A stretch of 64,000 nucleotides of DNA from Candidatus Dojkabacteria bacterium (GTDB taxonomy: Bacteria; Patescibacteriota; Dojkabacteria; J137): contig JAMQHH010000013.1 in assembly GCA_025993875.1 (NCBI GenBank), positions 95,744 to 159,743 of the forward strand, written 5' to 3'. Both the position numbers and the translations under genes were made by a program. Positions 4,090 through 62,726 of the stretch are shown piece by piece; position 1 is the first letter of the stretch; every line of letters starts with the position of its first letter. A model generated the notes under the pieces. It was given only the letters and a program-made list of their open reading frames with translations, was not told the origin of the DNA and did not search any database.

Positions 4090-5316
4090 ATGAATTTTCA
4101 GCTAAACTCAAAATTTGCTCCAGGCGGAGATCAGCCTCAGGCAATTGACTTGTTAACCCTTGGGTTGCAAAACGGTTTAAAGCATCAAACACTTATTGGT
4201 GCAACCGGCACCGGAAAGACATTTACAATGGCCAATGTGATTGTTAACTATAATCGACCTACCCTTGTACTGGCTCACAATAAAACATTGGCGGCACAAC
4301 TTTTTGCCGAGTTTAAAGAGTTTTTTCCAACAAATTCGGTGGAATATTTTGTAAGTTATTACGATTATTATCAGCCCGAAGCATATGTACCGCAACGCGA
4401 TTTGTATATAGAAAAAGATTCGGATATAAACGAAGTTATTGAAAGATATAGAAATTCGGCAACAATGGCTTTACTTTCCAGAAGAGATGTAATTATTGTA
4501 TCTACTGTAAGCTGTATTTATGGACTGGGAAACCCTGATTCGTATACCGAACTAAGCATTAAATTAAAAACGGGAATTGAATTTAAAAGAGATAAGCTTT
4601 TGGCACGGTTAAGAGATATGCAGTACGAAAGAACATCAAACGATTTTTTAATTGGTACGTTTAGGGTTAGAGGAGAACTTGTGGATGTCAATTTACCCAC
4701 ATCCGAAGATATTGGCGTAAGGATAGAATTTTTTGGCGATAACATCGAAACCATAAAATTAATAAATCCGATAAGTGGTGAACTTATCGGCAAAGTAGAT
4801 GAATATACAATTTTTCCCGCAAAACAATATGTTAGTACAACCGAAAATATTACAGGCACAATTGGGGTAATTAGAGACGATCTTGAAATAGAAAAAAAAG
4901 AGTTTGAGTCCAGAGGTAAAATGTTCGAAGCAGCGAGGTTAAATCAGAGAGTTAATTACGATTTGGAGATGCTTACAGAAACAGGTTACTGTAAGGGAAT
5001 TGAAAACTATTCCCGTTATTTGGACCATCGCAATCCGGGAACCCCGCCCTCTACTCTTTTAGATTATTTTTCGGACGATTATTTAATGTTTATAGACGAA
5101 TCTCATATCTCTGTTCCTCAGGTTAGAGGAATGTATAATGGTGATTTTGCCCGAAAACAAAATTTAGTAGATTACGGCTTTAGAATGAAATCGGCAATGG
5201 ATAACAGACCATTAAAATTTGAGGAATTTGAGCAAAGATTAAACCAGGTAATTTATACATCTGCAACCCCTGCGGAGTGGGAGATTGAAAAAAGCAAAGA
5301 GTCTGCAAGGCATTAA
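4090..5316 (+). CDS. uvrB: UvrB excinuclease subunit, N-terminal about 410 aa only. Helicase domain 3 and the UvrC-interacting C-terminal domain are absent
   Basis: Typical UvrB N-terminus (FQLNSKFAPGGDQPQAI, Walker A GATGTGKTF). The ORF ends right after the conserved YTSATP segment (..IYTSATPAEWEIEKSKESARH*), where full-length UvrB continues for about 250 aa. Confidence 0.8.
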   Translation: MNFQLNSKFAPGGDQPQAIDLLTLGLQNGLKHQTLIGATGTGKTFTMANVIVNYNRPTLVLAHNKTLAAQLFAEFKEFFPTNSVEYFVSYYDYYQPEAYVPQRDLYIEKDSDINEVIERYRNSATMALLSRRDVIIVSTVSCIYGLGNPDSYTELSIKLKTGIEFKRDKLLARLRDMQYERTSNDFLIGTFRVRGELVDVNLPTSEDIGVRIEFFGDNIETIKLINPISGELIGKVDEYTIFPAKQYVSTTENITGTIGVIRDDLEIEKKEFESRGKMFEAARLNQRVNYDLEMLTETGYCKGIENYSRYLDHRNPGTPPSTLLDYFSDDYLMFIDESHISVPQVRGMYNGDFARKQNLVDYGFRMKSAMDNRPLKFEEFEQRLNQVIYTSATPAEWEIEKSKESARH

Positions 5317-5338
5317 CTTAATTGATTACTTTTTTATG

Positions 5339-5800
5339 TCGAATAATACTTTCGACCATCTAAAGAAAAAAGCTGAGATGGCTCCGAAATTTCCTAAATA
5401 TTTAACAGATTCAAGCTGGCAGGAGTCTGAATCTCCAATAAAAAGATACCAAAATATTTTGGATAAACAGGAAAAAGTACTAATTGATTGGGTTCACGAG
5501 CCACTTGAATATATTGATGGTTTGCCAGAAATAAATAAAGATGGCCAAGGAAGCAAGATAGCTCTAAACGAAAGGGAAAAAGTAATTATTAACAGGTTAA
5601 GAGTTTTAAGAAGTGATCCGAGAGTTAGTGTTGAAGAAATTATAGATGATTTACATACAGGTAGTAAAGAATTTTATAGAGGGAAGATTGTAATAATTGG
5701 CGGTGGGATTGAAGATGTATGTTGTGAACAAAGATATTTATATCTTAGAGAGATTGGAGCTATACCTGTAATTGATTTAGCGTTAACAACGAGGTATTAA
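5339..5800 (+). CDS. Hypothetical protein (not a UvrB continuation)
   Basis: ORF 5285-5800. The internal Met at 5339 is the likelier start. No recognisable UvrB C-terminal motifs in any frame. Confidence 0.3.
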   Translation, partial: SNNTFDHLKKKAEMAPKFPKYLTDSSWQESESPIKRYQNILDKQEKVLIDWVHEPLEYIDGLPEINKDGQGSKIALNEREKVIINRLRVLRSDPRVSVEEIIDDLHTGSKEFYRGKIVIIGGGIEDVCCEQRYLYLREIGAIPVIDLALTTRY

Positions 5801-5801
5801 A

Positions 5802-6782
5802 TTAAGCAGATCGAAGTAAGTTCTCCAACTCTCCTAATAAACTATCGTAAACCGCTTTATCTTCGTTATCGTAATTTTGCAACATGTCCTCTAGACGTAC
5901 AAATGTGTGATACTTTGCTGAAATACTCTCTATAAATCCAGGCAAACTGTAACCAAGATCAGTAAACCCTTCTAAATTAAGAGCTTTGTTTTTGCTATTT
6001 AAACAAAACGGATAAAATCCAAAATAGATCCAAAATTTTAGCAGTGCCAGACACCATCTCATGGAAATAGATTCTTGCTTAAAAGGATCTGTTAACTTTT
6101 TACCTTCAAAATTCGGCGGGAAAGCAGTAATGTAAGATCCAACATCTCTATCTGTACTTGTTCCTACGCTTTCCTCTTGGCCTGCTTTATTTTTAAATTT
6201 TATCTGACAAAGTCCTGGATCAATAAATACTACCTCAAATTGTGAACCACTTCTTTTGATCTGAAAATTGCTTCCTTTTAAGTCGCGTGTGGCAACGCCT
6301 TTTTTTATCATCTCAAGCACATATTTCTCTATTGCCATTAGCACTAAGTTTTTTTCTTCTTTGCTGTTAAACTGGAATCTATCGAGAGCGGTGTATTCTT
6401 TTAGATATTCTAGGGCTATACCAATCTCTTCCGGAATATCTGTCCCGGTTTCTGCTCTAACATCTGGAATAAATGTTGCTTTATCTTTAAGAGTAGGATC
6501 AAAGGTTACTATACCAATAACATTAATTGTTCTAACACTAACTTTCTCGCCTTCGACTACAGAAATATTTTGTAACAGTTTTAATGCTAACATTTCGACC
6601 TGCGCTTTTACAGAGTATTCACTTTCTGTTTGGAATTTGAATTTTCGAGGCACTTTTAAAACCAACTCCACGCCACCGGCGCTTTCTTTTAAAATATAAA
6701 ACCATGCTGAAGATCCAGCATCCGTAAACTCAACCTTAGAAATAATAAATTTCGGTGTATTCGGGAGCTCTCTAGGATTCAT
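5802..6782 (-). CDS. Atypical protein-kinase-fold protein (ePK-like catalytic loop xRDLKxxN and DFG-like IDPG). Paralog of 7227-8228
   Basis: 326 aa. ..KKGVATRDLKGSNFQIKRSGSQFEVVFIDPGL.. aligns with ePK HRDLKPxN...DFG spacing. The shared C-terminal motif MRWCLALLKFWIYFGFYPF is also in the paralog. Confidence 0.45.
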   Translation of the reverse strand: MNPRELPNTPKFIISKVEFTDAGSSAWFYILKESAGGVELVLKVPRKFKFQTESEYSVKAQVEMLALKLLQNISVVEGEKVSVRTINVIGIVTFDPTLKDKATFIPDVRAETGTDIPEEIGIALEYLKEYTALDRFQFNSKEEKNLVLMAIEKYVLEMIKKGVATRDLKGSNFQIKRSGSQFEVVFIDPGLCQIKFKNKAGQEESVGTSTDRDVGSYITAFPPNFEGKKLTDPFKQESISMRWCLALLKFWIYFGFYPFCLNSKNKALNLEGFTDLGYSLPGFIESISAKYHTFVRLEDMLQNYDNEDKAVYDSLLGELENLLRSA

Positions 6783-7065
6783 GGGATATTATTGTATTAT
6801 CAAATTCTAAAAGAATAACTTGTTTGTTTGCCATATTAAAGGCAAACTTTAGTTCAACTTTTGTTGATGGTGAAGTCTCTTTTATTTTAGGCCATTCATT
6901 TGTTACAAAAGAGATAAGCTCAAAACTTTGTTCGGGATTTTTTTCTATCAAACTTAGTAATTGTTTAAATCTGGATAGCGCCTCATCTTTATTGTGACTT
7001 TGGTTAAGCATTTCTAAGCATTCTTTTATTACAGCATATCTCTTTAGTTCAGGTCTTTGAGGCAT
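6772..7065 (-). CDS. Hypothetical small protein (97 aa), overlaps the start of the downstream kinase-fold gene by 11 nt
   Basis: ORF geometry only. Confidence 0.3.
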   Translation of the reverse strand: MPQRPELKRYAVIKECLEMLNQSHNKDEALSRFKQLLSLIEKNPEQSFELISFVTNEWPKIKETSPSTKVELKFAFNMANKQVILLEFDNTIISHES

Positions 7066-7226
7066 AGATTTTAATTTAAGATTTTCATTTACAGTCTATC
7101 ATTTATATTTAAATACTGCATTAGGGTTAATTTTATTGCATATTGGTTTGCAAGGAAAGTTTGCTCTGTTTAATTAAACTCTCCACTAAGCCAGCAGAAT
7201 ATTTATTATCAGAGAGTTATGTCATG

Positions 7227-8228
7227 TTATTCTATACTTATATTATATTTCTTTAACAAATCTAAAAGTTTTTCACAAATTGCTTTATAGAGTTCGTTGA
7301 ATTCATTTCCGTGAGGTAGCGGTACTTCTGCAAAAGTTGCATTGCCACTTAATATAGCATCACTTATTTTCTCAAATTTATCTTCTAGTTCTCGAGGTGA
7401 TATTCTTCTGCTAAAAAATTCTTCCATTGTAATTTCATTATTTCCTATATTAAATGGATATTTTTTAAAAATAATTAAAAATGCTAAGATAAGTGCTCCC
7501 CATCTCATGGAGTCCGCTTCCAGTTCAAAAGATATGCGAAGCCTTTTTAACAAATTATCCATCATAATCGGAAATCTTGTTGGAAAAGTACCTGCAACAT
7601 TTTCTGCTCCAAAACATGTGTATAAATTATTATTAAATTGAATTGTTCCAATATTGGCATCTAAAATTACACACTCCAAAAAACCATTTTTTAATCTTAA
7701 TCTAACATTATCAAACTTGAAATCTCTTGTTGCAAATCCTTTTTGAATGATTTCTTCGGTAAATTGAACTAAGCAAGAAAGAAAATTTAAAGCCATTGAA
7801 GGATCGGTTAAAGGTGAATTTTCTCGCATATGTGTGTGGATTGCCCAAAATCCATCTGGTAATTTTTCTGTTAATATTGCATGGTAAGTAGCATTTTGAA
7901 AAACTACATCTCCATGCCATAAAAGGTTTATTGGGACAATCTCAACATTTAATTCAGTTTTTCTTACTGATGAAATTAACTGAAGGGCTAAGGCTTCAAA
8001 TTCTTGCATAGTTAAAATTGAAGTATTTATTACCTCAGATCTTATAGGATATTTATCAATTTTTAAGAAGAAAGTTTTTTTTGGTTCAGTAGTACTTTCT
8101 AACTCAAAGATTTGGGATAATCCTCCCTGTGTGCCGGACAGACCCGTCACATTATACTGAACATTCCCTAAAGTTAAACTTCGATTAACAACAATTTCAA
8201 CCGTTTGGAGCTTTTCACTTTCACTCAT
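7227..8228 (-). CDS. Atypical protein-kinase-fold protein, paralog of 5802-6782
   Basis: 333 aa. ..QKGFATRDFKFDNVRLRLKNGFLECVILDANIG.. and C-terminal MRWGALILAFLIIFKKYPF. Same architecture as the 326-aa paralog. Confidence 0.45.
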   Translation of the reverse strand: MSESEKLQTVEIVVNRSLTLGNVQYNVTGLSGTQGGLSQIFELESTTEPKKTFFLKIDKYPIRSEVINTSILTMQEFEALALQLISSVRKTELNVEIVPINLLWHGDVVFQNATYHAILTEKLPDGFWAIHTHMRENSPLTDPSMALNFLSCLVQFTEEIIQKGFATRDFKFDNVRLRLKNGFLECVILDANIGTIQFNNNLYTCFGAENVAGTFPTRFPIMMDNLLKRLRISFELEADSMRWGALILAFLIIFKKYPFNIGNNEITMEEFFSRRISPRELEDKFEKISDAILSGNATFAEVPLPHGNEFNELYKAICEKLLDLLKKYNISIE

Positions 8229-8231
8229 AAA

Positions 8232-8474
8232 TTATTGTTCAAAATTTATGGATAAAGTGTATTTTATTTCAGTTACAGTATCTCTGATTGTTAAAAACCA
8301 ATCATTTGGATTAATACCTCTTGTTAAAACTATTGCAAACCGATCTGTAGAATTTTTAGATATACATTTATTTATTTCCTCTAAATTTCTGAAAGTTATC
8401 ACTTGATTTGAAATCGTAGAACTATCAGTTATTTGTCGAAGCACATTTTCTAATGCTGAACAGTTAGTTGACAT
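8232..8474 (-). CDS. Hypothetical small protein (80 aa), 3 nt upstream of the kinase-fold gene
   Basis: ORF geometry only. Confidence 0.3.
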   Translation of the reverse strand: MSTNCSALENVLRQITDSSTISNQVITFRNLEEINKCISKNSTDRFAIVLTRGINPNDWFLTIRDTVTEIKYTLSINFEQ

Positions 8475-8492
8475 ATTAATTTAATAATGTTT

Positions 8493-10493
8493 TTAAATTA
8501 ACCCGGCTTTAATTCTTCTAATCCCTCCTCCGCTACTCTCCTCCTTAAATATTTTAAACCTTTTTCCTCCGTTTGCAAGTTCACTAGTGTTCCCAACATG
8601 CGGACCACCGCAAAATTCCATCGAAAATGGATCCTTTTCGTCGCCAATGCGATATATTGTTACAATCTCTCCATATTTTTGCCCAAATTCCATTTGCGCT
8701 CCCAATTTTTCGGCTTCTGCTTTTGGCATTTCCAGCCTTTCTACATTTAGCCCCTCAACTATTTTTTGATTAACAAGCTCTTCTACTTTTTTTATTTCGT
8801 CCTCCGTTAATTTTCTATCTAAATTAAAATCAATTCTTAACCGCTCGGCGGTAATATTGCTTCCTCTTTGTTTAATATTGGAATCGACAATTTTTTGGAG
8901 AGCTGCTAAAAGCAAATGATGTGCGGTGTGCAACTTTGTTGTTTCGATAGAATTATCTGCCAAACCACCTTTAAATTTTTGTTCACTCCCCGCGCGGGAT
9001 GCCTCGCGATGTTTTTGTTCCTCAGCTTTAAATTCTGCTTCGATTTTTTTTATTTGATTTTCGTCGGTTATTTTTAATTCCTCAATTATCATTTCGAGGG
9101 GGAAACCGTATGTTTCGTAGATATTGTATGCTGTTGCTCCGGAAATTGCCGATTCTATCTGTTGTAGAGAGGGAATTTGTTGAGGAGACGCAATCTGTTG
9201 ATGTGGAGACGCAAAATTTTGCGTCTCTACATTTTGCGGTATTTGTTTTTTGTCATTTTGTGTCTCTACAACAGCCCTTAGAAATTTTAGACCTTTTACA
9301 AGGGTTAATCTAAACGCGTTTTCTTCTTTATCTATGGCTTCTAAAACTGTTGCTTTTTGTTCCAAAAGGTGGGGATAGGCATTTTGCATTCTTTCTATTA
9401 CAGTTTCGGCAATAATCTTAGAAAAATTGTTATTAATCTCGAGCTTTATTCCGAATCTTATTAACCTTCTAATAAACCTGCGCAAAATATATCCCTGATC
9501 TTTATTGGATGGCATAACACCATCGGCCAAAATAAAGGTGGAGGCCCTTGCATGGTCGGCAATAATTCTGAATGCACTTGTAAATTCGTTTTCCTCCCCC
9601 TTTGTTTTATATGTTTTTCCAGATAACTGCCCTACTTTTTGGATTATCGGCATGTAAAGATCGGTTTCGAAGATATCATCTTTGCCTTGAACAATCATTA
9701 CTACCCTTTCGAATCCACCTCCAAAATCGATATTTTTTTGAGGGAGCATCTGCCATTTTAAATTAGTATCTAAAACATTTTGCATAAAAACATTGTTTCC
9801 AATCTCAATAAATCTCCCCGAATCATCATTTATATTGTATTTACCCTGCTCTACTCTAACCGAACCCAAATCGTAAAACATTTCCGAGGTAGGCCCGCCG
9901 AGTTCGCTTGGTGCGTGTGCTCTTTCCCACCAGTTCTTTTTTTTGGGAAAAGGAAAAATTCTATACTCCCAGTTTTTTCCCTCTTCCAGATTTTTAGGTA
10001 AATTAGAAATATCCTCGCAAAATTTGGCTGTTATTCCATATTTTAGAAAAGCCTCCTGCCAAATTTGTATTGCTTCAATATCCCTTGGCGCATCTGCGTC
10101 GCCTTCAAAAACACTTACATAAAGCCTGGACGGATCCAGATTACATTTTTCTATCCAAAACTCCATTATCCAGTTTATCTGCTCTTTTTTGAAAAAATCT
10201 CCCAGTGACCAGTTCCCAATCATCTCGAACATCGAGGTGTGCCTGTTATCACCTATTTCCATCAGATCATCGTAATTTGTTCGTAAACATCTTTGAATAT
10301 TCACTAATCGTTTTCCCATTGGATGAGGTAATCCTCCAAGATAAGGAGCCAATGGAAACATTCCTGAATTAACAAACAGAAGTGTTGAATCTACATTAGG
10401 AACAAGAGACATATTCGGAACAATTTTAGCGTTTCTGGGACTTTCGCTCCAAAAAGCTAAAAAGTCATTTCTAATTTCTTCGGAGGTTTTCAT
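8493..10493 (-). CDS. alaS: Alanyl-tRNA synthetase, short form (no C-Ala domain), with a Q/P-rich low-complexity insert
   Basis: N-terminus EIRNDFLAFW...STLLFVNSGMFPLAPYLGG. Editing-domain HxxxH (HTAHHLLLAALQ). 666 aa. Confidence 0.9.
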   Translation of the reverse strand: MKTSEEIRNDFLAFWSESPRNAKIVPNMSLVPNVDSTLLFVNSGMFPLAPYLGGLPHPMGKRLVNIQRCLRTNYDDLMEIGDNRHTSMFEMIGNWSLGDFFKKEQINWIMEFWIEKCNLDPSRLYVSVFEGDADAPRDIEAIQIWQEAFLKYGITAKFCEDISNLPKNLEEGKNWEYRIFPFPKKKNWWERAHAPSELGGPTSEMFYDLGSVRVEQGKYNINDDSGRFIEIGNNVFMQNVLDTNLKWQMLPQKNIDFGGGFERVVMIVQGKDDIFETDLYMPIIQKVGQLSGKTYKTKGEENEFTSAFRIIADHARASTFILADGVMPSNKDQGYILRRFIRRLIRFGIKLEINNNFSKIIAETVIERMQNAYPHLLEQKATVLEAIDKEENAFRLTLVKGLKFLRAVVETQNDKKQIPQNVETQNFASPHQQIASPQQIPSLQQIESAISGATAYNIYETYGFPLEMIIEELKITDENQIKKIEAEFKAEEQKHREASRAGSEQKFKGGLADNSIETTKLHTAHHLLLAALQKIVDSNIKQRGSNITAERLRIDFNLDRKLTEDEIKKVEELVNQKIVEGLNVERLEMPKAEAEKLGAQMEFGQKYGEIVTIYRIGDEKDPFSMEFCGGPHVGNTSELANGGKRFKIFKEESSGGGIRRIKAGLI

Positions 10494-14934: not shown

Positions 14935-15753
14935 TTATAAAGAGCTAATAAAATTTATATCGGAATAATTAATAAGCTTAACATTCAGCCTGGTCAGTTC
15001 ATTTTTTAATTCTTTGTTGGTAAGAATTAAGTACTCTTTCTTGCGCCAATCTTCTTCTAGCCCTGGATGAAAACTTATCTCTATAATCTCATTATTTTCT
15101 ATTTTGTCCAGCTCGGCTTTTATTATCTCTAAATAATTACTATACCTGTTCGGATAAAGTAATGAAAAATAATTGGTTGTTCCAATTTTTTGTTCTGTAA
15201 TTTTTTTGTTTAAGTTAATACAATGGTCAATATTGCCCATTCGATGTTGATTCCCTGCCCAATCAAACATTACCTGATTTCGTACTGGCAGTTTATATTC
15301 TTGAGCAATCGTAATAAAAGCTTCGAAAGAATTTGGCAATGAAGATGTGTAGTGGTGAGAATCCAGATGGGTAGGTAATTTGTTAAATAGGGCTATAAAC
15401 TTCTCAATCTGGCATTTATATTCTGAGTAAATATCATCCGGGTGATAGTTTTTAAAATAGTCCAGCCACTGCTCTCTATTGAACTGTTCAGGCAGATTTC
15501 TTTTGGGTCTGGAAAATTCACCATATTTTTTTAACCAGTTTTCTGTAAGAGGTGAACCAGATGTGATGTTTAAATGCAGGCCAAATCCCAGGGAACTACT
15601 AACATTCTGGGCTAATAAAAGATCTTCTTTGGAAATAAAATTAATCAGTATAGTTGTACTGGTTAAAACTCCGCTACGAAAACTATCGATTATTGCTTTG
15701 CTAATATCACTCCTATAACCAAAATCATCTGCGTTTGTAATAAGATATTTCAT
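14935..15753 (-). CDS. YdjC/ChbG-family carbohydrate deacetylase
   Basis: N-terminus MKYLITNADDFGYRSDISKAIIDSFRSGVLTSTTILIN matches the YdjC family signature (NADDFG...GxxTSTS). Confidence 0.7.
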   Translation of the reverse strand: MKYLITNADDFGYRSDISKAIIDSFRSGVLTSTTILINFISKEDLLLAQNVSSSLGFGLHLNITSGSPLTENWLKKYGEFSRPKRNLPEQFNREQWLDYFKNYHPDDIYSEYKCQIEKFIALFNKLPTHLDSHHYTSSLPNSFEAFITIAQEYKLPVRNQVMFDWAGNQHRMGNIDHCINLNKKITEQKIGTTNYFSLLYPNRYSNYLEIIKAELDKIENNEIIEISFHPGLEEDWRKKEYLILTNKELKNELTRLNVKLINYSDINFISSL

Positions 15754-29763: not shown

Positions 29764-32700
29764 TTACTGTATTACAATATAATCCCCAATTATATCAGAA
29801 GCTAGGGGTTCTACAAAGTTGACTGTAAATTTTCCTTCTGTTTTTTCTATCCAGTACTGTGGTACTAGAGAATTGAATGTAACAAAAACTTTGCTTGTAG
29901 TATCAAATTCCTCAATTATCACTTCGATTTTATCTAAGCCAGCAGCACCTGCTATCTCTCCACTACTTTTTTCGGTTAAGGCTAACTTTTCGATATAAGC
30001 GCTTGTTGCTTTTAACTCCGCCACATTTAACGATCCATTTATTATCAAAACAGATTCTGATATATTAATTAAATCCGAAATACCAAGGATCTTTGCCTTT
30101 TGCTCCTCTGTAAATTCGTTTCCGGGAATTACAATAGCAGCAAGTTGTGATTTTAATAAATTAATCTCTTCTTGTAAGAGATTAATTTTAGCCTCTATAG
30201 GGTTTAAATCTGTTTTTTCGGTTGGAAGATTATTTCTACTTACCAATACATTTATTATATCCGTACTTTCGGTTTGATCTTCCATTGCAACTCCAAGTGT
30301 TAGATCGCCGGCAAATGCTTTCATACCATGTCCCGGCATATCCGAAACAGTTACAAAATCCCCTCTTTTAATTAAGCCGTTTTGATCGTTTACTTTGGTC
30401 GGTAAAACACCGGATAATCCCACAGGATAAGAACGGGAATTCTTAAAAGGAGTATTTCCCATTACAATTGTCGGATTAGTAGAGATAATTCCTATTGCTT
30501 TATCGTTTTTTGAAGCTGTTTTTGAAATTTGTTTCCAGTCTCCATTAATATTTTCTCCCGAAAGCTTTACAATTTCTCCTCTATATAAACTTTCGGCAGA
30601 AGAAAATGTTTCTGCAATGTCGCAGCCATCTACTCCACCGTCACCGCCATCACTGTCACCACAGGCACCGGTCATTGTAACCGCCCCTGCAATGTTTAAT
30701 GTGCCATCCTCGGTTACTATATCATTAGCGCCTTCTGCCCCACCGTTAGAAAAATATATTCCATTTGTTCCTGTTCTAACAATTTGTAATTCTGTTGTCC
30801 CCGCACCTGCAAGATAAAGACCTACACTGCTACTGGTGGCTCCGGTTACCGAACCTATGTACATTCCATAAGAATTTGTTGCTGCTCCGGAAAGACCTCC
30901 TACGTACACACCGTAATTTGTGTTGGTTCCACCACTAAATGGATCTACATAAACACCTGCCATCATATCTCCCGCTGTTAATCCACCTGCAAAGCTTACG
31001 TAATTTCCTATAACAAATCCGGAAGCTGCACCAGCTCCCATTAACAGCTGCTGCCCAACAAAGTTCCCTGTTAATGTACCTGGGGATAATGAATTATAAA
31101 TTCCAAATCCGTGGGTTCCGCTACCGTTATTCGTAAACTGGTTGTAAATGCCATACATTGTGCTGACTCCATCATTATTAGTAACGTAATTTGTTATTCC
31201 TGCAAAGGTAGATACGCTTCCGTTATTTGTAGAAGAGTTCGAAAGTGTTTCTACAAATCCAAGCGAAGCTGCTACCGGAACGGTAAGCGAATTTCTAACA
31301 GGAAAATAATTTCCTGCAAGGGGAGTGTTAGTGCTACTGTTTATTTCTAAAATAGAATCTGCATATACTCCTGCATCGAAAATTGCTACCCGACTGTTAC
31401 TTGCAGCGATACTTCCATTTAAAACATTTAAAGCCGAGTCGCCTGTGTCCCAGTAAAAATTGGCTGAAGCACCAAAAGAACCGGAGCTATTAAATTGTAT
31501 TTCACTATCATTTCCTGCAGGAGTTCCTCCACCCCCTGCGGCAAGTAAATCAACATTAGTAGACCCGTCATAAAAGTAAAGTTCAGAGCCGTTCCACCAT
31601 AAATCACCCGATACGGGAGCGGATGGATCAAATCCGCTTGGAATTCTTAAGCTGGAAAGTGCAGTTGTGGAAGCACCAAGCCTTGTAAGACCGGCATCGA
31701 CCCATATAGATGCATTAGTGCCGCTTCCTCCGCTGGCTCCTTCAATATATAATCCGTAAGAACTGGATGAACCTGTTCCCACGATCTCACCAAGATAAAC
31801 ACCAAAGTTAGAAACTGTTCCTCCTGAAAGTTCATCAATTTTTACGCCATAAACACCATTGGCAACTGAAAGGGTTGCACCTGCAAAATTAATCTGTGAA
31901 CCAATAAGATCTCCGCTTATTGTTGAGTCCCCTACAGCAAGATAATTACCTACAAAGTTTCCGGAAGCTGTACCAGGAGTTACAGTTGTATAAATTCCGT
32001 ACCCGTTTCCTATTGTCCAGTTATTCAAAACTTCGTTGTAAACACCAAACATAGATGTTACACCACTAATGTTATTCATGTAATTACGAATACCATAATA
32101 ATCCGTAATAATACCCCAATTTGCAGATAAATTATAAATAGAAGCAGCTGTGCCAAGAGTTGCTGATGAATCAATTGTATTATCATTATAAATCGGATAG
32201 AAATTACCAGATGTTGGAACATTAGCTAAACCGTAAATGTTTAAAATTCTTTCGGCATTAGTTGTGCCATCTAAAAGAGATAATCTTCCTGTTTCTGCAA
32301 TAATATTGCCGGTAACATGTAAAGCCTCGGACGGTGTGTTAGTCCCTATCCCTAGCATTGCGTTTCCTAAGCCACTACGTGCAAATGCAAAAAGCTCATC
32401 ACCTGTTCCAGGATCTCTTAAAATAAGCTTTCCGGGCCCAGCAGCGCTACTATCATCTGTTGACTGAAAATACCATTGATTTGCTCCGGAATACGAATTT
32501 TCAAAAAACAATCCTAGTCCATCACCCAGACTTCCTCTTATACTTAACCCTCTGTCACAACATGGACTTCCATCGGTATCTACCACAAGTGTTTTATTCC
32601 CTCCGTTGGTTCCTACCCCCAGCCAGTTATTTGTATTATCCCAAAACAAATCAGAAGAGGCTCCAAAAGATCCGGAATTATTGAATTGAATCTCGCCATT

Positions 32701-34596
32701 GGCTCCCGCAGGGGTTCCTCCGCCTCCGGCCAATAAGTTTACATTACTCGAACCATTGTAGAAATAAAGTTGAGTTCCGTTCCACCACAAATCTCCGGAA
32801 ACCGGTGAGGACGGATCAGTACCTGCTGCAACTCTAACTGACGAATTGGAAGCCGTAGACGGGGCAAGCCTTGTAAGGCCACTATTAACCCACACAGTTG
32901 CATTTTGAGTAGTAGCTCCGCTTGCACCTGCCAGGTATAACCCATAGCTTTCATCTCCTCCCGTTACTGTTGAAACATGTATTCCATAATTTTTAGCTGT
33001 CGCAGGTGTAGTACCTCCTGCTAAATCAAGTTTTAATCCATAGTTAAAGGTGGTTGCATCAAATCCTATGCTGTAACTTGCGCCATACAGGTTAGTCGGT
33101 CTTATTCCCAAACCATAAACATCACTCATTGCAATTTTAGTTCCGTATGCTTCACCGGTAATATCTCCCCCTAAATTGATTGACCCAAGAAGTCCCACAA
33201 CCATACCATCGCTATTTGCAGATGCATACTGATCAACTCGGTAATTAATTCCGCCAAGAGCCGATCCCAGTCCTCCCGAAGTAGCGGTACCTTCCAAATG
33301 TCTTGTCCATAAATAAAGACCTCTTACCCCTTCTTCAGTATTGCCGGTGTTATCTGATCTTCCGTATATTGCTGCTACCTGCCCCTTTTGAGTTAAAGAT
33401 CTGTTATCCGAAACAAAAGAGCCACCAAAGGATCCATATGCAGTACCACCTGTTGTGGCTAAAACAGATCCGCTATAAAAAGTTGAAAATCCATGAATTC
33501 CTGCGGCAGAAGATGTGCTTTCGCCGGTTGATGTATATTCTATTCTTCCTGCTACTCCCCTTAGTTCTCCTGGTGTGTTGGAACTTCCTGTATTAACAAC
33601 CGACCTAATCCCCTGTGTTAAACCTGTACTGTTATTTGTTGCATTTACAAAAACAGGGTATAAATCCCCCGATGTCTGATTATTTGTTGAGTTATCAATT
33701 TTTAAGATTGAGTTTTGCGAAGGGGTGGCGTCCCAAAGTGCTAGCCTTCCGCCTGTACCTGAATTTGTAGAAACAACTACATTGCCACCTGCAACAGAAA
33801 GTAACTCCAATGGTGTTTGCGTTCCAATTCCAATGTTGCCGTTTTCATTAACATTTAATCTAGATACTCCTGCTGTAAAAAAGTCTATTCCGTTAGAGCT
33901 GCTTTGTACGGATTTGGTATTTGAAAAAAATATATCAGTATCGGCAGTTAAATCAATTCTCTGATTTAATGGGCTTAAAGCAAAAGTGTTAGCACCATTT
34001 AAAACAGAGAGGTTTCCGTTTGTCGATACATTAAGCCGCGAAGCTCCATTAAAATTTAATCCTAATATATTTCCATCTCCTCCATATGAATTAACGGAAT
34101 ATGCTGTCTCACCAGTACTGATTGTTGCCGGACCCAAATTTCTTGCTCGTAAAGCAAATGCTTCTGCCGTAATTTTACGCCTTGGTTTAAACTCCTCTTC
34201 AAAACCTCCGCCACAAGTTGCAGTTCCGTCTCCTGCTGTTGTATTAGCATCAAAACAAACCTGTAAATATAGTTCGGAATTTGTCTCGAAAATAGATGAA
34301 GGCATGCTTACATTCTCTCCTAAATTAACACTAATTCCGCCAAGCCTCGAGCCAACTCCCAAAACTGTTTCCGCCCATAAAGGTGTTCCGCCTGTTTTAG
34401 AACTGAAAATTATAAATCTAAAATTATAGCTCCCATCTGTGAGTGCTTCCTGCTTATTATTAATTATAGATGTTTTAAAGTTAATTACCTCATTAGAAGG
34501 AGAAGCCAAAACTCTCGGCGAAAAAAAGAATGTTATCCCTAAAAAGGTTGCTAGAGTTATTATTTTTTTCATATTTTTATACATTAACCTGTGCAA
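29764..34596 (-). CDS. Giant secreted Gly/Ser/Thr/Asn-rich surface protein (1610 aa) with internal repeats and a C-terminal coiled coil
   Basis: Signal peptide (..MKKIITLATFLGITFFFSPRVLA). Two about 70-aa repeat units (..PVSGDLWWNG[T/S][Q/E]LYFY[N/D]GS[S/T]NV[N/D]LLAGGGGTPAG..EIQFN[N/S]SGSFGAS..). Composition typical of beta-helix or fibre-like adhesins. Confidence 0.6.
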   Translation of the reverse strand: MHRLMYKNMKKIITLATFLGITFFFSPRVLASPSNEVINFKTSIINNKQEALTDGSYNFRFIIFSSKTGGTPLWAETVLGVGSRLGGISVNLGENVSMPSSIFETNSELYLQVCFDANTTAGDGTATCGGGFEEEFKPRRKITAEAFALRARNLGPATISTGETAYSVNSYGGDGNILGLNFNGASRLNVSTNGNLSVLNGANTFALSPLNQRIDLTADTDIFFSNTKSVQSSSNGIDFFTAGVSRLNVNENGNIGIGTQTPLELLSVAGGNVVVSTNSGTGGRLALWDATPSQNSILKIDNSTNNQTSGDLYPVFVNATNNSTGLTQGIRSVVNTGSSNTPGELRGVAGRIEYTSTGESTSSAAGIHGFSTFYSGSVLATTGGTAYGSFGGSFVSDNRSLTQKGQVAAIYGRSDNTGNTEEGVRGLYLWTRHLEGTATSGGLGSALGGINYRVDQYASANSDGMVVGLLGSINLGGDITGEAYGTKIAMSDVYGLGIRPTNLYGASYSIGFDATTFNYGLKLDLAGGTTPATAKNYGIHVSTVTGGDESYGLYLAGASGATTQNATVWVNSGLTRLAPSTASNSSVRVAAGTDPSSPVSGDLWWNGTQLYFYNGSSNVNLLAGGGGTPAGANGEIQFNNSGSFGASSDLFWDNTNNWLGVGTNGGNKTLVVDTDGSPCCDRGLSIRGSLGDGLGLFFENSYSGANQWYFQSTDDSSAAGPGKLILRDPGTGDELFAFARSGLGNAMLGIGTNTPSEALHVTGNIIAETGRLSLLDGTTNAERILNIYGLANVPTSGNFYPIYNDNTIDSSATLGTAASIYNLSANWGIITDYYGIRNYMNNISGVTSMFGVYNEVLNNWTIGNGYGIYTTVTPGTASGNFVGNYLAVGDSTISGDLIGSQINFAGATLSVANGVYGVKIDELSGGTVSNFGVYLGEIVGTGSSSSYGLYIEGASGGSGTNASIWVDAGLTRLGASTTALSSLRIPSGFDPSAPVSGDLWWNGSELYFYDGSTNVDLLAAGGGGTPAGNDSEIQFNSSGSFGASANFYWDTGDSALNVLNGSIAASNSRVAIFDAGVYADSILEINSSTNTPLAGNYFPVRNSLTVPVAASLGFVETLSNSSTNNGSVSTFAGITNYVTNNDGVSTMYGIYNQFTNNGSGTHGFGIYNSLSPGTLTGNFVGQQLLMGAGAASGFVIGNYVSFAGGLTAGDMMAGVYVDPFSGGTNTNYGVYVGGLSGAATNSYGMYIGSVTGATSSSVGLYLAGAGTTELQIVRTGTNGIYFSNGGAEGANDIVTEDGTLNIAGAVTMTGACGDSDGGDGGVDGCDIAETFSSAESLYRGEIVKLSGENINGDWKQISKTASKNDKAIGIISTNPTIVMGNTPFKNSRSYPVGLSGVLPTKVNDQNGLIKRGDFVTVSDMPGHGMKAFAGDLTLGVAMEDQTESTDIINVLVSRNNLPTEKTDLNPIEAKINLLQEEINLLKSQLAAIVIPGNEFTEEQKAKILGISDLINISESVLIINGSLNVAELKATSAYIEKLALTEKSSGEIAGAAGLDKIEVIIEEFDTTSKVFVTFNSLVPQYWIEKTEGKFTVNFVEPLASDIIGDYIVIQ

Positions 34597-60050: not shown

Positions 60051-62726
60051 ATGGGTAATACTCAACAACCAAAAAAATTTAACCGTAAAATTCTCATCTT
60101 TATATTTTCGATTCTTGTTTTAAATGCAGTTTTGGTTTCGAGGGTTGTTGCGCAGCCTGCACGTTCGCCATCGAGCATAAATTTATTTACAATAATTTCG
60201 CCCCAGGAAAATGCATTTTTAAAAAACGACACATCTTATAGCCATTCCGAAATGGGCGGGATAATAGGAGATACAATTTCGGCCGCAGAAACTGTTTTGG
60301 GAGGAGATTCTTTTTCCAACCAGTATGCCCAAAGCAAAAGCACATCAGACTCTATTAGTTCAATCTTAAAGCAATATCCCGATATAGACTATAACACTGC
60401 AATCTATCTAATTAATAACAGCACTGCAGGTGGTGGAGTTATGGGTATGATTTCGTCGGGAACAAATTTACTTGTAACACAAAGACCAGCATCGGGAACC
60501 TGGTTTTTAGAACAAAAAGTTTACGCTCTTACTAATCCCGGCAAAGTTTATGCGCAGTCCTCTACCCCATCGCCTTATTACCCGGGGCTTGGATTTGATT
60601 TATTAAAGCCGATTTACGGGTTTTGGGGATGGTCGGTAAATATTGTTTTTGGATTTCTTATTTTGCTTATAATCGTTATTGCTTTTGCAATAATGTTTCA
60701 GCAACGTCTTGGAGCAAAAACCGCAATAACATTGCAAACTGCTATTCCAAGTATTGCGCTTGCACTTATCTTAGTTCCCTTTAGTTATGCTATCTCGGGT
60801 GCATTTATAGACTTAATAACTCTTGGCACAAATGTTGTTCACGGATTTGTTTTAGGACCGGGTTCTCCCGGAAAAGGAGTTTACGATGATATTGTAAGTG
60901 AATCTATATCCCAAACTGACTGTGCAAAAAACGGCGTTTTTGGAGACGATTGTAATAGAGGTCTTTATGCCGACGATTGGCGTGTTGGAGTTTTACGCTT
61001 TAGGGAACAAATAGATTTACGGCCGACTTTCTCGGAAGTGGGCGATACTTTGCAGCTAAAGGTTTTTGATTTTATTGTCCCAATCTTAAACGCAATATTC
61101 TGGGAAGAGGCAGCCACGGGGCAAACAGTTCCATCTACTGCTGCGTGGTTTGGTGCAATTGTTAACATGGGTTTATCGATTTTAATGATCTGGTACGGCA
61201 TTAAAGCATTTATTATTTTATTCGGAAAATATTTAACATTAATAATTTTACCTATTGCATCTCCGTTTATTTTTGCCACTGTTGCCGTTCCGGGAACGGG
61301 AATAAAAAATGTTACCATGTATGCAAAACGACTTGGCGCAGCAGCACTTTCGTATATTGTAACTTATGGAATACTGCTTTTAACTATAGTTCTAACACAT
61401 CAGGCGTTTTTATCTACCCTTCCCGAACTTAGATCGGGGGCTTTTGTTCCGCCACTTTTAGGAATAACAGCAGCAATTGGTGGAGGAAGTACAACTTTGG
61501 CAAAGCTTCTATTTACCCTTATTGGACTCGGAATGTATTTTTCGTTACCAAAAATTTTGGCAAGTGTAGATAAGGCCTTGGGAGTAAGTGGACCGCTAAT
61601 TCCTGATTTTATAAAGACACCTTGGGAAGGGCTAAAGGAGAGCTGGAATGTTACGAGAGGGGTAGCAGGAAGAGCTGTAAGGGCTCCTTTTGCTGTGCCT
61701 GGTTTAGCGCAAAAGGGACTTGAAGTTTTAGAATCAACTAGAGATGGATTAAATCTTAATGCAATGAGGAACAGATGGATTGCAAGAAGACAGGACAGAG
61801 CGGGTATTGGACAGGAAAATGAAACAAGTGCGAGATACCAGCATAAGAAGGACTTAGAAGGTAAATGGGCAGAGGCAAAGCGACAGTTTGATGCTGCTGT
61901 TGCATCCGGAGACAGGCGTGGTGCATTGAGATATAAAGGGGATATGGACGATTTAGATAAAGAGGCAACTAGAAATAGCATAACATTATCCCATTCAACT
62001 AAACCCGAGGATAAAGTTTCTATATCGGCAGTATTTAAGAGTAAAAGCAATGACCCAGATAATATGATTATATTCAAAACAGATAGGCTAGATGATATCT
62101 TCCTAAAAGTAACAGGAAGGAAAAATATGACGGATGCAGCAGGAAGCTATCCGGTTGCAACTGCTTTAATTGCAGCTGACTTGGTTCTGGAAGCAAAGAA
62201 ACTTGCATTCCCTCCAGAACCAGTAATCCAGATTGGGTATGCATCTTTAGTGCCTGGGTCTTCTCAAGATCTTGAGTGGGGAGGTCCAGCTCCTGCCAAC
62301 GAACAATTTAGTGCTGCTATTGCATCTCCCCCTGCTGTTGCGTTGACTTTTGGGGCAGCGAAAACCGGGTTCGAAAATTTTATTCGAATAAGAGCAAACA
62401 ATGGATTCCCGGCAATGACTCCCGCTGATGTCGCGAAATTGAAAAAAGCTTTATCTCCGGATTATTATGAAGGCAAAAAGATAACTATTCCTATGGCGGT
62501 TGAGATTGGATTTGGAACGCCACTTGCGTCCCTCAACGAAGTAAGTTTTGGAGAGTTGTTTGGAACAAGGGACACTAGCACAGGAAGATACGTAGGGGGA
62601 TTTTTGGCAAGCTATGGTGCCAGTTTTAAATTTGGTGATGTAGGAACTGACTCAAACAAAAGGATATTTAGGATTAACGGAAAAGATTCTAATGCAATAA
62701 CCGTTAATATAATTAAGCAGGACTAA
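60051..62726 (+). CDS. Large polytopic membrane protein with N-terminal signal peptide, central 6-8 TM block and about 390-aa hydrophilic C-terminal region. TrbL/VirB6-like topology (speculative)
   Basis: 891 aa. Signal peptide ILIFIFSILVLNAVLVSRVVAQP. TM cluster between about aa 200 and 500. Charged C-terminus. Confidence 0.3.
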   Translation: MGNTQQPKKFNRKILIFIFSILVLNAVLVSRVVAQPARSPSSINLFTIISPQENAFLKNDTSYSHSEMGGIIGDTISAAETVLGGDSFSNQYAQSKSTSDSISSILKQYPDIDYNTAIYLINNSTAGGGVMGMISSGTNLLVTQRPASGTWFLEQKVYALTNPGKVYAQSSTPSPYYPGLGFDLLKPIYGFWGWSVNIVFGFLILLIIVIAFAIMFQQRLGAKTAITLQTAIPSIALALILVPFSYAISGAFIDLITLGTNVVHGFVLGPGSPGKGVYDDIVSESISQTDCAKNGVFGDDCNRGLYADDWRVGVLRFREQIDLRPTFSEVGDTLQLKVFDFIVPILNAIFWEEAATGQTVPSTAAWFGAIVNMGLSILMIWYGIKAFIILFGKYLTLIILPIASPFIFATVAVPGTGIKNVTMYAKRLGAAALSYIVTYGILLLTIVLTHQAFLSTLPELRSGAFVPPLLGITAAIGGGSTTLAKLLFTLIGLGMYFSLPKILASVDKALGVSGPLIPDFIKTPWEGLKESWNVTRGVAGRAVRAPFAVPGLAQKGLEVLESTRDGLNLNAMRNRWIARRQDRAGIGQENETSARYQHKKDLEGKWAEAKRQFDAAVASGDRRGALRYKGDMDDLDKEATRNSITLSHSTKPEDKVSISAVFKSKSNDPDNMIIFKTDRLDDIFLKVTGRKNMTDAAGSYPVATALIAADLVLEAKKLAFPPEPVIQIGYASLVPGSSQDLEWGGPAPANEQFSAAIASPPAVALTFGAAKTGFENFIRIRANNGFPAMTPADVAKLKKALSPDYYEGKKITIPMAVEIGFGTPLASLNEVSFGELFGTRDTSTGRYVGGFLASYGASFKFGDVGTDSNKRIFRINGKDSNAITVNIIKQD

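Follow-up and report, generated by a model that had tools for sequence, protein, structure and literature searches.

A replaceable cassette of tandem Hanks-type kinase genes and small partner genes behind alaS in Dojkabacteria: a possible conflict module

Between the alanyl-tRNA synthetase gene alaS and a shortened uvrB gene, the genome of a member of the Candidatus Dojkabacteria carries a cassette of four genes, in which two predicted Ser/Thr protein kinases (K1 and K2) are each preceded by a small open reading frame (ORF; S1 and S2). This insert evolves fast, can be replaced or deleted, and occupies one fixed site, bounded by alaS on one side and by uvrB together with X154, an orphan gene of 154 residues, on the other. 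We describe it from a 64-kb stretch of contig JAMQHH010000013.1 (hereafter the window, to which all coordinates refer). Behind alaS the genes follow one another on the minus strand in the order S2, K2, S1, K1: S2 (80 residues, 8232-8474; delimited from the ORF list and the sequence) starts 18 nucleotides (nt) past the alaS stop codon and ends 3 nt before K2 (333 residues, 7227-8228), and after a spacer of 161 nt S1 (97 residues, 6772-7065) overlaps K1 (326 residues, 5802-6782) by 11 nt (CATGAATCCTAG). A preliminary description of this DNA had pointed out the co-directional array, the two paralogous proteins of about 330 residues and the small ORF before each of them, with an overlap in one pair and a 3-nt gap in the other, and in all of this it was correct. 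It had also compared the layout with toxin-antitoxin or effector-immunity genes and raised the possibility that the proteins are pseudokinases, and these two proposals are weighed below.

BLASTP relates K1 to K2 at E=1e-14, with 33% identity in an alignment of 132 residues that begins at the catalytic loop and ends at the MRW...YPF helix, the alphaF half, and the motifs on which the preliminary description relied are all present in the sequence: ATRDLKGSNFQ in K1 and ATRDFKFDNVRL in K2 at the catalytic loop, IDPG and LDAN 21 residues further on at the DFG position, and SMRWCLALL..YPF and SMRWGALIL..YPF towards the C-terminus. Searches with the single sequences led to little. At the curated threshold of the Pfam Pkinase model (PF00069) there was no match for either protein (only ABC1 at E=0.15 for K1, nothing for K2), and single-sequence searches of Pfam, NCBIfam and PADLOC gave nothing useful, K2 having a weak match to the PD-T4-6 kinase hidden Markov model (HMM) of PADLOC (E=0.0058) and K1 none. 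In the PDB, phmmer with K1 alone reached RSK and PINK1 only at E values of 0.2-1.5 (overall 0.1-2.5); with K2 alone the three best matches (E 0.14-0.47) were unrelated proteins and PINK1 appeared only at 2.5, and a profile of K2 and its orthologue did not reach the PDB kinases. A word-indexed homologue search of 5.8 billion proteins returned only the query itself and one orthologue of 64% identity. What made the profile and structure results possible was an exhaustive search with HMMER, in which 1.84 billion cluster representatives yielded six proteins (K1, K2, the K2 orthologue P0004, P0005, P0006 and P0007), and the seven-sequence alignment obtained from it.

The family-alignment profile matched 223 PDB sequences at E<1, and 60 of 60 among the matches listed are Ser/Thr protein kinases, led by the C-terminal kinase of MSK1 (1.3e-7), CaMK1D (4.5e-5) and PINK1 (3e-4). 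The AlphaFold2 model of K1 calculated on the same alignment has a mean predicted local distance difference test score (pLDDT) of 74.9 and a predicted template modelling score (pTM) of 0.81, an earlier run on three sequences only having given a pLDDT of 44.7. Its secondary-structure elements follow the order of a kinase, with N-lobe strands, alphaC (53-70), alphaE (141-160), beta7-8 and alphaF (233-254), and with Foldseek it matched 1496 PDB kinase chains at E<=1e-3, in keeping with a bilobal protein-kinase fold; canonical eukaryotic protein kinases (ePKs) overwhelmingly dominate the top fold matches among those listed, and the matches in a viral fold library are generic kinases only. Across the seven family members, Pfam Pkinase is touched by four (best 4.2e-5), Kdo by three (best 4e-7) and ABC1 by two. 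Because the PDB profile matches, the AlphaFold2 model, the Foldseek matches and these Pfam touches agree, we regard K1 as a predicted canonical kinase domain of the Hanks type that is extended by some 65 residues of private helical tail. The kinase fold suspected in the preliminary description was thereby recovered by both profile and structure, and its proteins find a place in the Hanks-type superfamily; an atypical kinase of the kind it had suggested looks improbable for K1, as no HipA match was seen, and among the further families it had named no match to APH, RIO, CotH or Fam20 was seen, Kdo alone being touched as given above.

The residues needed for catalysis appear to be in place. In all seven aligned kinases Lys43 (in the VLKxPK strand), Glu63, Arg166-Asp167-x-Lys169 and Asp188 are invariant, as are Gly215, Thr219, Pro222, Glu237, Trp243 and Pro258, and Asn172 is present in six of the seven, with Ser in P0004. 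In the K1 model Lys43 (6654-6656, minus strand) lies in strand 39-45 and Glu63 in helix 53-70, in the positions of the beta3 Lys and the alphaC Glu, while the catalytic loop ATRDLKGSN (residues 164-172; 6267-6293, minus), defined by invariant columns of the alignment, fits the secondary structure of the model and is followed by the DFG-equivalent Asp188 (6219-6221, minus). By alignment, K2 retains Lys56, Glu78, Arg168-Asp169, Lys171, Asn174 and Asp190, its loop ATRDFKFDN comprising residues 166-174 (7707-7733, minus). The Glu of the APE motif is replaced in both proteins (FPPN), and throughout the alignment Thr, Ser or Asn stands in place of the HRD His. PKA has YRD at this position. Thr for His does occur in both copies, as had been noted, but it is no argument for a pseudokinase, since no residue of the chemistry is lost and the His position varies naturally. 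No signal-like or membrane-like segment is visible by eye at the N-terminus of K1 or K2, no predictor having been run. Judging from sequence, K1 and K2 are minimal, cytoplasmic-looking and catalytically intact-looking Ser/Thr kinases of a tiny, lineage-restricted family.

A similar case can be made for the small ORFs. An ORF of the S1 type stands directly before a K1-type kinase in four of four haplotypes, namely the window and the loci L001, L012 and L014, with BLASTP values of 1.8e-43 (64% identity) between S1 and the L001 protein, 2.5e-4 between S1 and that of L012, and 5e-9 between those of L012 and L014; an S2-type ORF precedes the K2-type kinase in both genomes that have one, the L001 orthologue of S2 comprising 83 residues (BLASTP 2.7e-10). 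The 11-nt overlap of S1 and K1 (6772-6782, minus; ATGAATCCTAG), a putative translational-coupling junction, follows the pattern ATGAnnnnTAG in all four of these haplotypes although identity among their kinases falls to about 30%. Because they are conserved with the kinases in four haplotypes and the overlap has been kept, we take the small ORFs to be real genes that belong with their kinases; the preliminary description had allowed that they might be spurious frames, and the recurrence of the four-gene order in L001 and of both families in further haplotypes places the arrangement beyond chance. Their nature is less easily read. HMMs of the S1-type and S2-type families found nothing in 45 GTDB and 80 JGI loci nor elsewhere in the window, S1 and S2 had no match in Pfam, NCBIfam, PADLOC, PHROG or PDB, and family searches detected neither a helix-turn-helix (HTH) nor any other domain in them. 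Homology between S1 and S2 was rejected (no BLAST similarity, hhalign probability 0.4%), as was the assignment of a 110-residue ORF of L014 to the S1 type, which is unrelated to the S1-type profile, the only profile with which it was compared.

The DNA around the small genes gives some hints of their expression. Immediately upstream of S1, a non-coding stretch of about 70 nt (7066-7136, minus) is some 93% identical to L001, compared with about 81% for the adjoining coding DNA, and the K2 DNA barely aligns; this conservation suggests that S1-K1 has its own promoter and leader, and we mark the stretch as a candidate promoter or translation-start region. Within it no inverted repeat, palindrome, structured element or significant promoter call was found. 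Promoter calls overall were not in excess, and terminator-like sites were slightly but not significantly more numerous than expected (7 vs 3.3). At the other end, S2 or the first kinase begins 18-20 nt past the alaS stop codon, which suggests co-transcription with alaS.

The closest alaS genes in GTDB belong to metagenome-assembled genomes of Candidatus Dojkabacteria (65-68%), identifying the organism as a member of the Patescibacteria, and every family member found comes from one Dojkabacteria-like clade and is encoded between alaS and a truncated uvrB. Three species of this clade were found and the locus carries family kinases in each of them. In the species of the window (species A; at least 20 contigs from many runs and samples, with intact frames) the order is alaS-S2-K2-S1-K1-(X154)-uvrB; species B (L001) has the same gene order, and species C (L014/L015) has alaS, a kinase of 325 residues, ORFs of 110 and 83 residues, a kinase of 340 residues, an ORF of 116 residues, an M20 peptidase gene and uvrB. 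A GTDB genome scan with the kinase profile gave nothing, and HMM scans of the 45 GTDB alaS loci and 80 JGI uvrB loci found no family kinase.

Species A has two other haplotypes at this site. In L012 (run ERR4450736), a single module of an 89-residue S1-type ORF and a 349-residue kinase, P0005, replaces the two modules of the window (L012 400-1869). Its flanks are 96-99% identical to the window (98.8% over 1769 nt), the last 240 nt of alaS being 100% identical, and P0005 is only 32% identical to K1 and nearer to P0007 of species C. The breakpoints lie 3 nt past the alaS stop codon and in the last codons (about 10 nt) of X154, whose C-terminus reads TTRY vs TTPI. In L158 (run SRR23459708), window position 8298 is joined to 5506 across a microhomology of 6 nt (L158 10191-10196), so that window 5507-8297 is deleted, with K2, S1 and K1 gone together with parts of S2 and X154 and with flanks about 98% identical; the existence of this haplotype indicates that the cassette is dispensable. 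On its left the variable site is anchored by the conserved alaS (8493-10493, minus; Pfam tRNA-synt_2c), itself outside the module, and on its right it is bounded by X154 (5336-5800, plus), which is convergent with K1. The rest of the window holds housekeeping genes such as pheST, ligase and CTP synthase.

The cassette also evolves faster than its surroundings. Between the window and L001 the amino acid identity is 94% for uvrB, 83% for nth and 80% for X154, and falls to 64% for K1, 64% for S1, 43% for K2 and 35% for S2. The ratio of non-synonymous to synonymous substitution rates (dN/dS) in the same comparison is 0.2-0.5 for the cassette (S2 0.26, S1 0.54), below 1 for all four genes, compared with 0.04-0.11 for uvrB and nth and 0.29 for X154. 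In 18 contigs that carry the same cassette as the window, five sites of K1 vary; the changes at four of these (N87K, T97A, R109K, A110T) are non-synonymous, and all four fall within an N-lobe insert modelled at low confidence (residues 87-110); S1, K2, S2, X154 and uvrB have no variable site in these contigs.

We tentatively suggest, at rather less than an even chance, that each pair is an accessory two-component conflict module comparable to abortive defence or to toxin-antitoxin systems with a kinase as toxin. Synthesis of the small protein would be tied to that of its kinase, which it would bind at about 1:1, keeping the kinase inactive or determining its specificity; if the partner disappears, is titrated away or is pushed off, as by a phage or other invader protein, the released kinase would modify Ser/Thr residues of the cell's or the invader's proteins by phosphorylation and bring about growth arrest, and the resulting arms race would drive diversifying selection and cassette exchange. 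We prefer such a module to housekeeping signalling because strains that are otherwise nearly identical have another pair in its place or lack one, and because the genes evolve fast. The steady pairing of small gene and kinase gene and the clustered non-synonymous changes of K1 count in its favour as well. A VapBC-like pair in the outgroup locus L073, a PIN-domain gene (8198-8837, minus; 2.5e-13) behind an 86-residue ORF in the uvrB neighbourhood, the alaS side not being on that contig, also speaks for it. The comparison drawn by the preliminary description is supported in part. Several observations weigh against a conflict module. Typical toxin-antitoxin and defence systems are spread patchily by horizontal transfer, in varied contexts, and here the family is restricted to one locus in one small clade (six clusters in 1.84e9 representatives), a distribution that would agree with a function peculiar to the clade and shaped by an arms race. 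As to signs of a mobile element, neither flanking repeats nor an integrase gene nor phage genes were found; family searches matched no antitoxin, DNA-binding or immunity fold in S1 or S2; the pairs lack the dichotomy of acidic antitoxin and basic toxin; no conserved operator-like palindrome was found; the P0006 kinase of L014 has no small ORF upstream; and the replacement and deletion haplotypes are each represented by one assembled contig. A wider formulation, which we consider somewhat doubtful, is that of an undescribed, Patescibacteria-specific conflict system of minimal Hanks-type kinases, each tied to a small, co-translated partner of its own with a novel fold, the pairs being exchanged as allelic cassettes at a fixed site and serving either as a new type of kinase toxin-antitoxin or immunity system or as polymorphic host-manipulation effectors of an episymbiont.

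Three other explanations have to be set beside the conflict module. The genes could serve lineage-specific endogenous signalling, possibly acting on translation, with the small proteins as substrates, activators or pseudosubstrate regulators in the style of partner switching. The fixed locus, its occupation in all three species, the probable co-transcription with alaS implied by the 18-20 nt spacing and the full set of catalytic residues would all suit this, and the PP2C-type phosphatase that outgroups carry at the same locus hints at a phospho-signalling neighbourhood; yet one species has two, one or no modules, an allele of 32% identity can take the place of the resident pair, and the dN/dS of the cassette exceeds that of uvrB and nth as given above. 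The idea of the small proteins as R/K-x-x-S substrates or pseudosubstrates was dropped because the motif is not consistently aligned in the S1-type alignment, and on balance we find endogenous signalling rather unlikely. Unlikely, too, in our view, are host-directed effector kinases of an episymbiont, with the small proteins as private chaperones or adaptors and an arms race with the host behind the cassette turnover. The Patescibacteria are largely regarded as host-dependent, and K1 and K2, with a kinase domain only and about 330 residues, resemble minimal bacterial effector kinases such as OspG/NleH and HopBF1. The restriction of the family to one lineage, its fast evolution and the clustering of non-synonymous changes in a surface insert would also suit effectors. 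To our knowledge no effector chaperones for such systems have been described in this phylum. A type IV secretion system has been reported to be widespread in Patescibacteria (PMC12102498) and would let effectors leave the cell without a signal peptide; the large ORFs checked in the window included no secretion genes, and the N-termini, inspected by eye as described, offer no secretion signal either. Finally, the proteins might be pseudokinases or decaying genes, Thr for His marking lost catalysis and the products being scaffolds or on their way to loss. This would concern mostly the K2 lineage, the most eroded one, in which DFG has become LDAN, P0004 has Ser for the Mg-binding Asn and the K2-only profile misses the PDB kinases, and the natural deletion in L158 could be cited for it. 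It is nevertheless very improbable, given that kinases of only some 25-30% identity share the beta3 Lys, the alphaC Glu, RD, the catalytic-loop Lys and the DFG Asp without exception, that dN/dS is below 1 in every gene and that the frames are intact in species A.

Little is known of how Patescibacteria handle phages, competitors and hosts. Their genomes are tiny, which makes genes that are retained while evolving fast and varying between strains prime candidates for such dealings, and the cassette offers a concrete two-gene unit, a Ser/Thr kinase predicted to be active and its orphan partner, for which allelic variants and a knockout occur in nature. Were it a kinase toxin, immunity or effector system, phosphorylation-based conflict as known from HipA, KKP and Stk2 would come to include canonical minimal kinases whose protein partners form a new class, and a first handle on such conflict biology in the Dojkabacteria would be at hand.

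The genes flanking the site have peculiarities of their own. X154 had no family match in library searches. The outgroup Dojkabacteria L036 and L073 have no family kinases and carry, directly after the truncated uvrB, a PP2C-type Ser/Thr phosphatase of 294 residues (PP2C_2, 2.2e-7), the position of which is occupied by X154 in the window. X154 as a decayed PP2C phosphatase, which would make the locus KKP-like, was not significant (BLASTP 0.077, hhalign probability 0.3%). The uvrB gene itself (4090-5316, plus) encodes only 408 residues matching positions 1-403 of the 653-position UvrB model and is without the second helicase domain and the UvrC-binding end. This truncation (408-416 residues) is common to L001, L015, L036 and L073, uvrB genes at <=64% identity in other metagenome loci have 657-720 residues, and UvrB C-terminal motifs were not found elsewhere in the window; it may represent a split gene or a reduced repair system of the Dojkabacteria-like clade. 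Inside alaS, a 32-nt near-perfect palindrome (9201-9232; ATGTGGAGACGCAAAA/TTTTGCGTCTCTACAT) sits in a low-complexity stretch rich in Q, P and S that is apparently extra to the relatives, AlaRS having 666 residues here vs 617-635 in the latter. A second variable spot is the YdjC/murG/ABC region, where the window and the contigs L004-L007 have a YdjC-family gene (14935-15753, minus) between an ABC transporter gene and murG that L008, L011 and L158, of the same species, lack; its two neighbours are unusually polymorphic, murG having 101 variant sites and the ABC gene being only about 73% identical in L158. Two very large ORFs (29764-34596, minus, 1610 residues; 60051-62726, plus, 891 residues) have no Pfam match at E<=1e-5.

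In the literature we found no described system that matches a minimal kinase with an orphan small partner and a conserved 11-nt overlap, tandem paralogous modules and allelic exchange at a fixed site in the Candidate Phyla Radiation, but several share parts of it. By fold and motifs K1 and K2 belong with the Hanks-type kinases (PknB, the PpkA domains, PF00069), below the Pfam thresholds; they differ from PknB and PpkA in having no sensor, membrane or PASTA domains, in the altered HRD His and APE Glu, in the private helical C-terminal extension and in the orphan small-ORF partner. The defence kinases PD-T4-6, Stk2 and BREX PglW show a weak HMM likeness (PglW 2.9e-7 and PD-T4-6 3.8e-5 in other family members, besides the K2 match above), which is generic to the kinase domain, and those systems have no coupled small partner gene. 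No PHROG family was matched significantly (best E 0.027, families of unknown function).

Other parallels exist among systems in which a kinase is the weapon. HipA-family kinases are a precedent for kinases as toxins (PMC8262856), and HipBA and HipBST (PMC8262856, PMC10627512) resemble the cassette in the small upstream gene closely coupled to a Ser/Thr kinase gene. They differ in that K1 and K2 have no HipA match in Pfam or NCBIfam and match canonical ePKs in fold, and in that no HipB-like HTH was detected in the small proteins; that HipA-family toxins target aminoacyl-tRNA synthetases while the cassette abuts alaS is a lead at the level of coincidence only. With type II toxin-antitoxin and defence cargo the cassette shares tight gene coupling and strain-variable presence. 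The KKP module of Pf prophages, a tripartite toxin/antitoxin anti-phage system of the kinases PfkA and PfkB and the phosphatase PfpC (PMC11341870), differs in its antidote, a PP2C-type phosphatase where the Dojkabacteria cassette has no phosphatase and orphan partners of 80-97 residues, and in its prophage location, the cassette occupying a chromosomal site with no prophage. Like K2 and K1, its two Ser/Thr kinase genes stand in tandem within an accessory cassette, and the kinase activity is the toxic or defensive output, a precedent for the conflict module suggested here.

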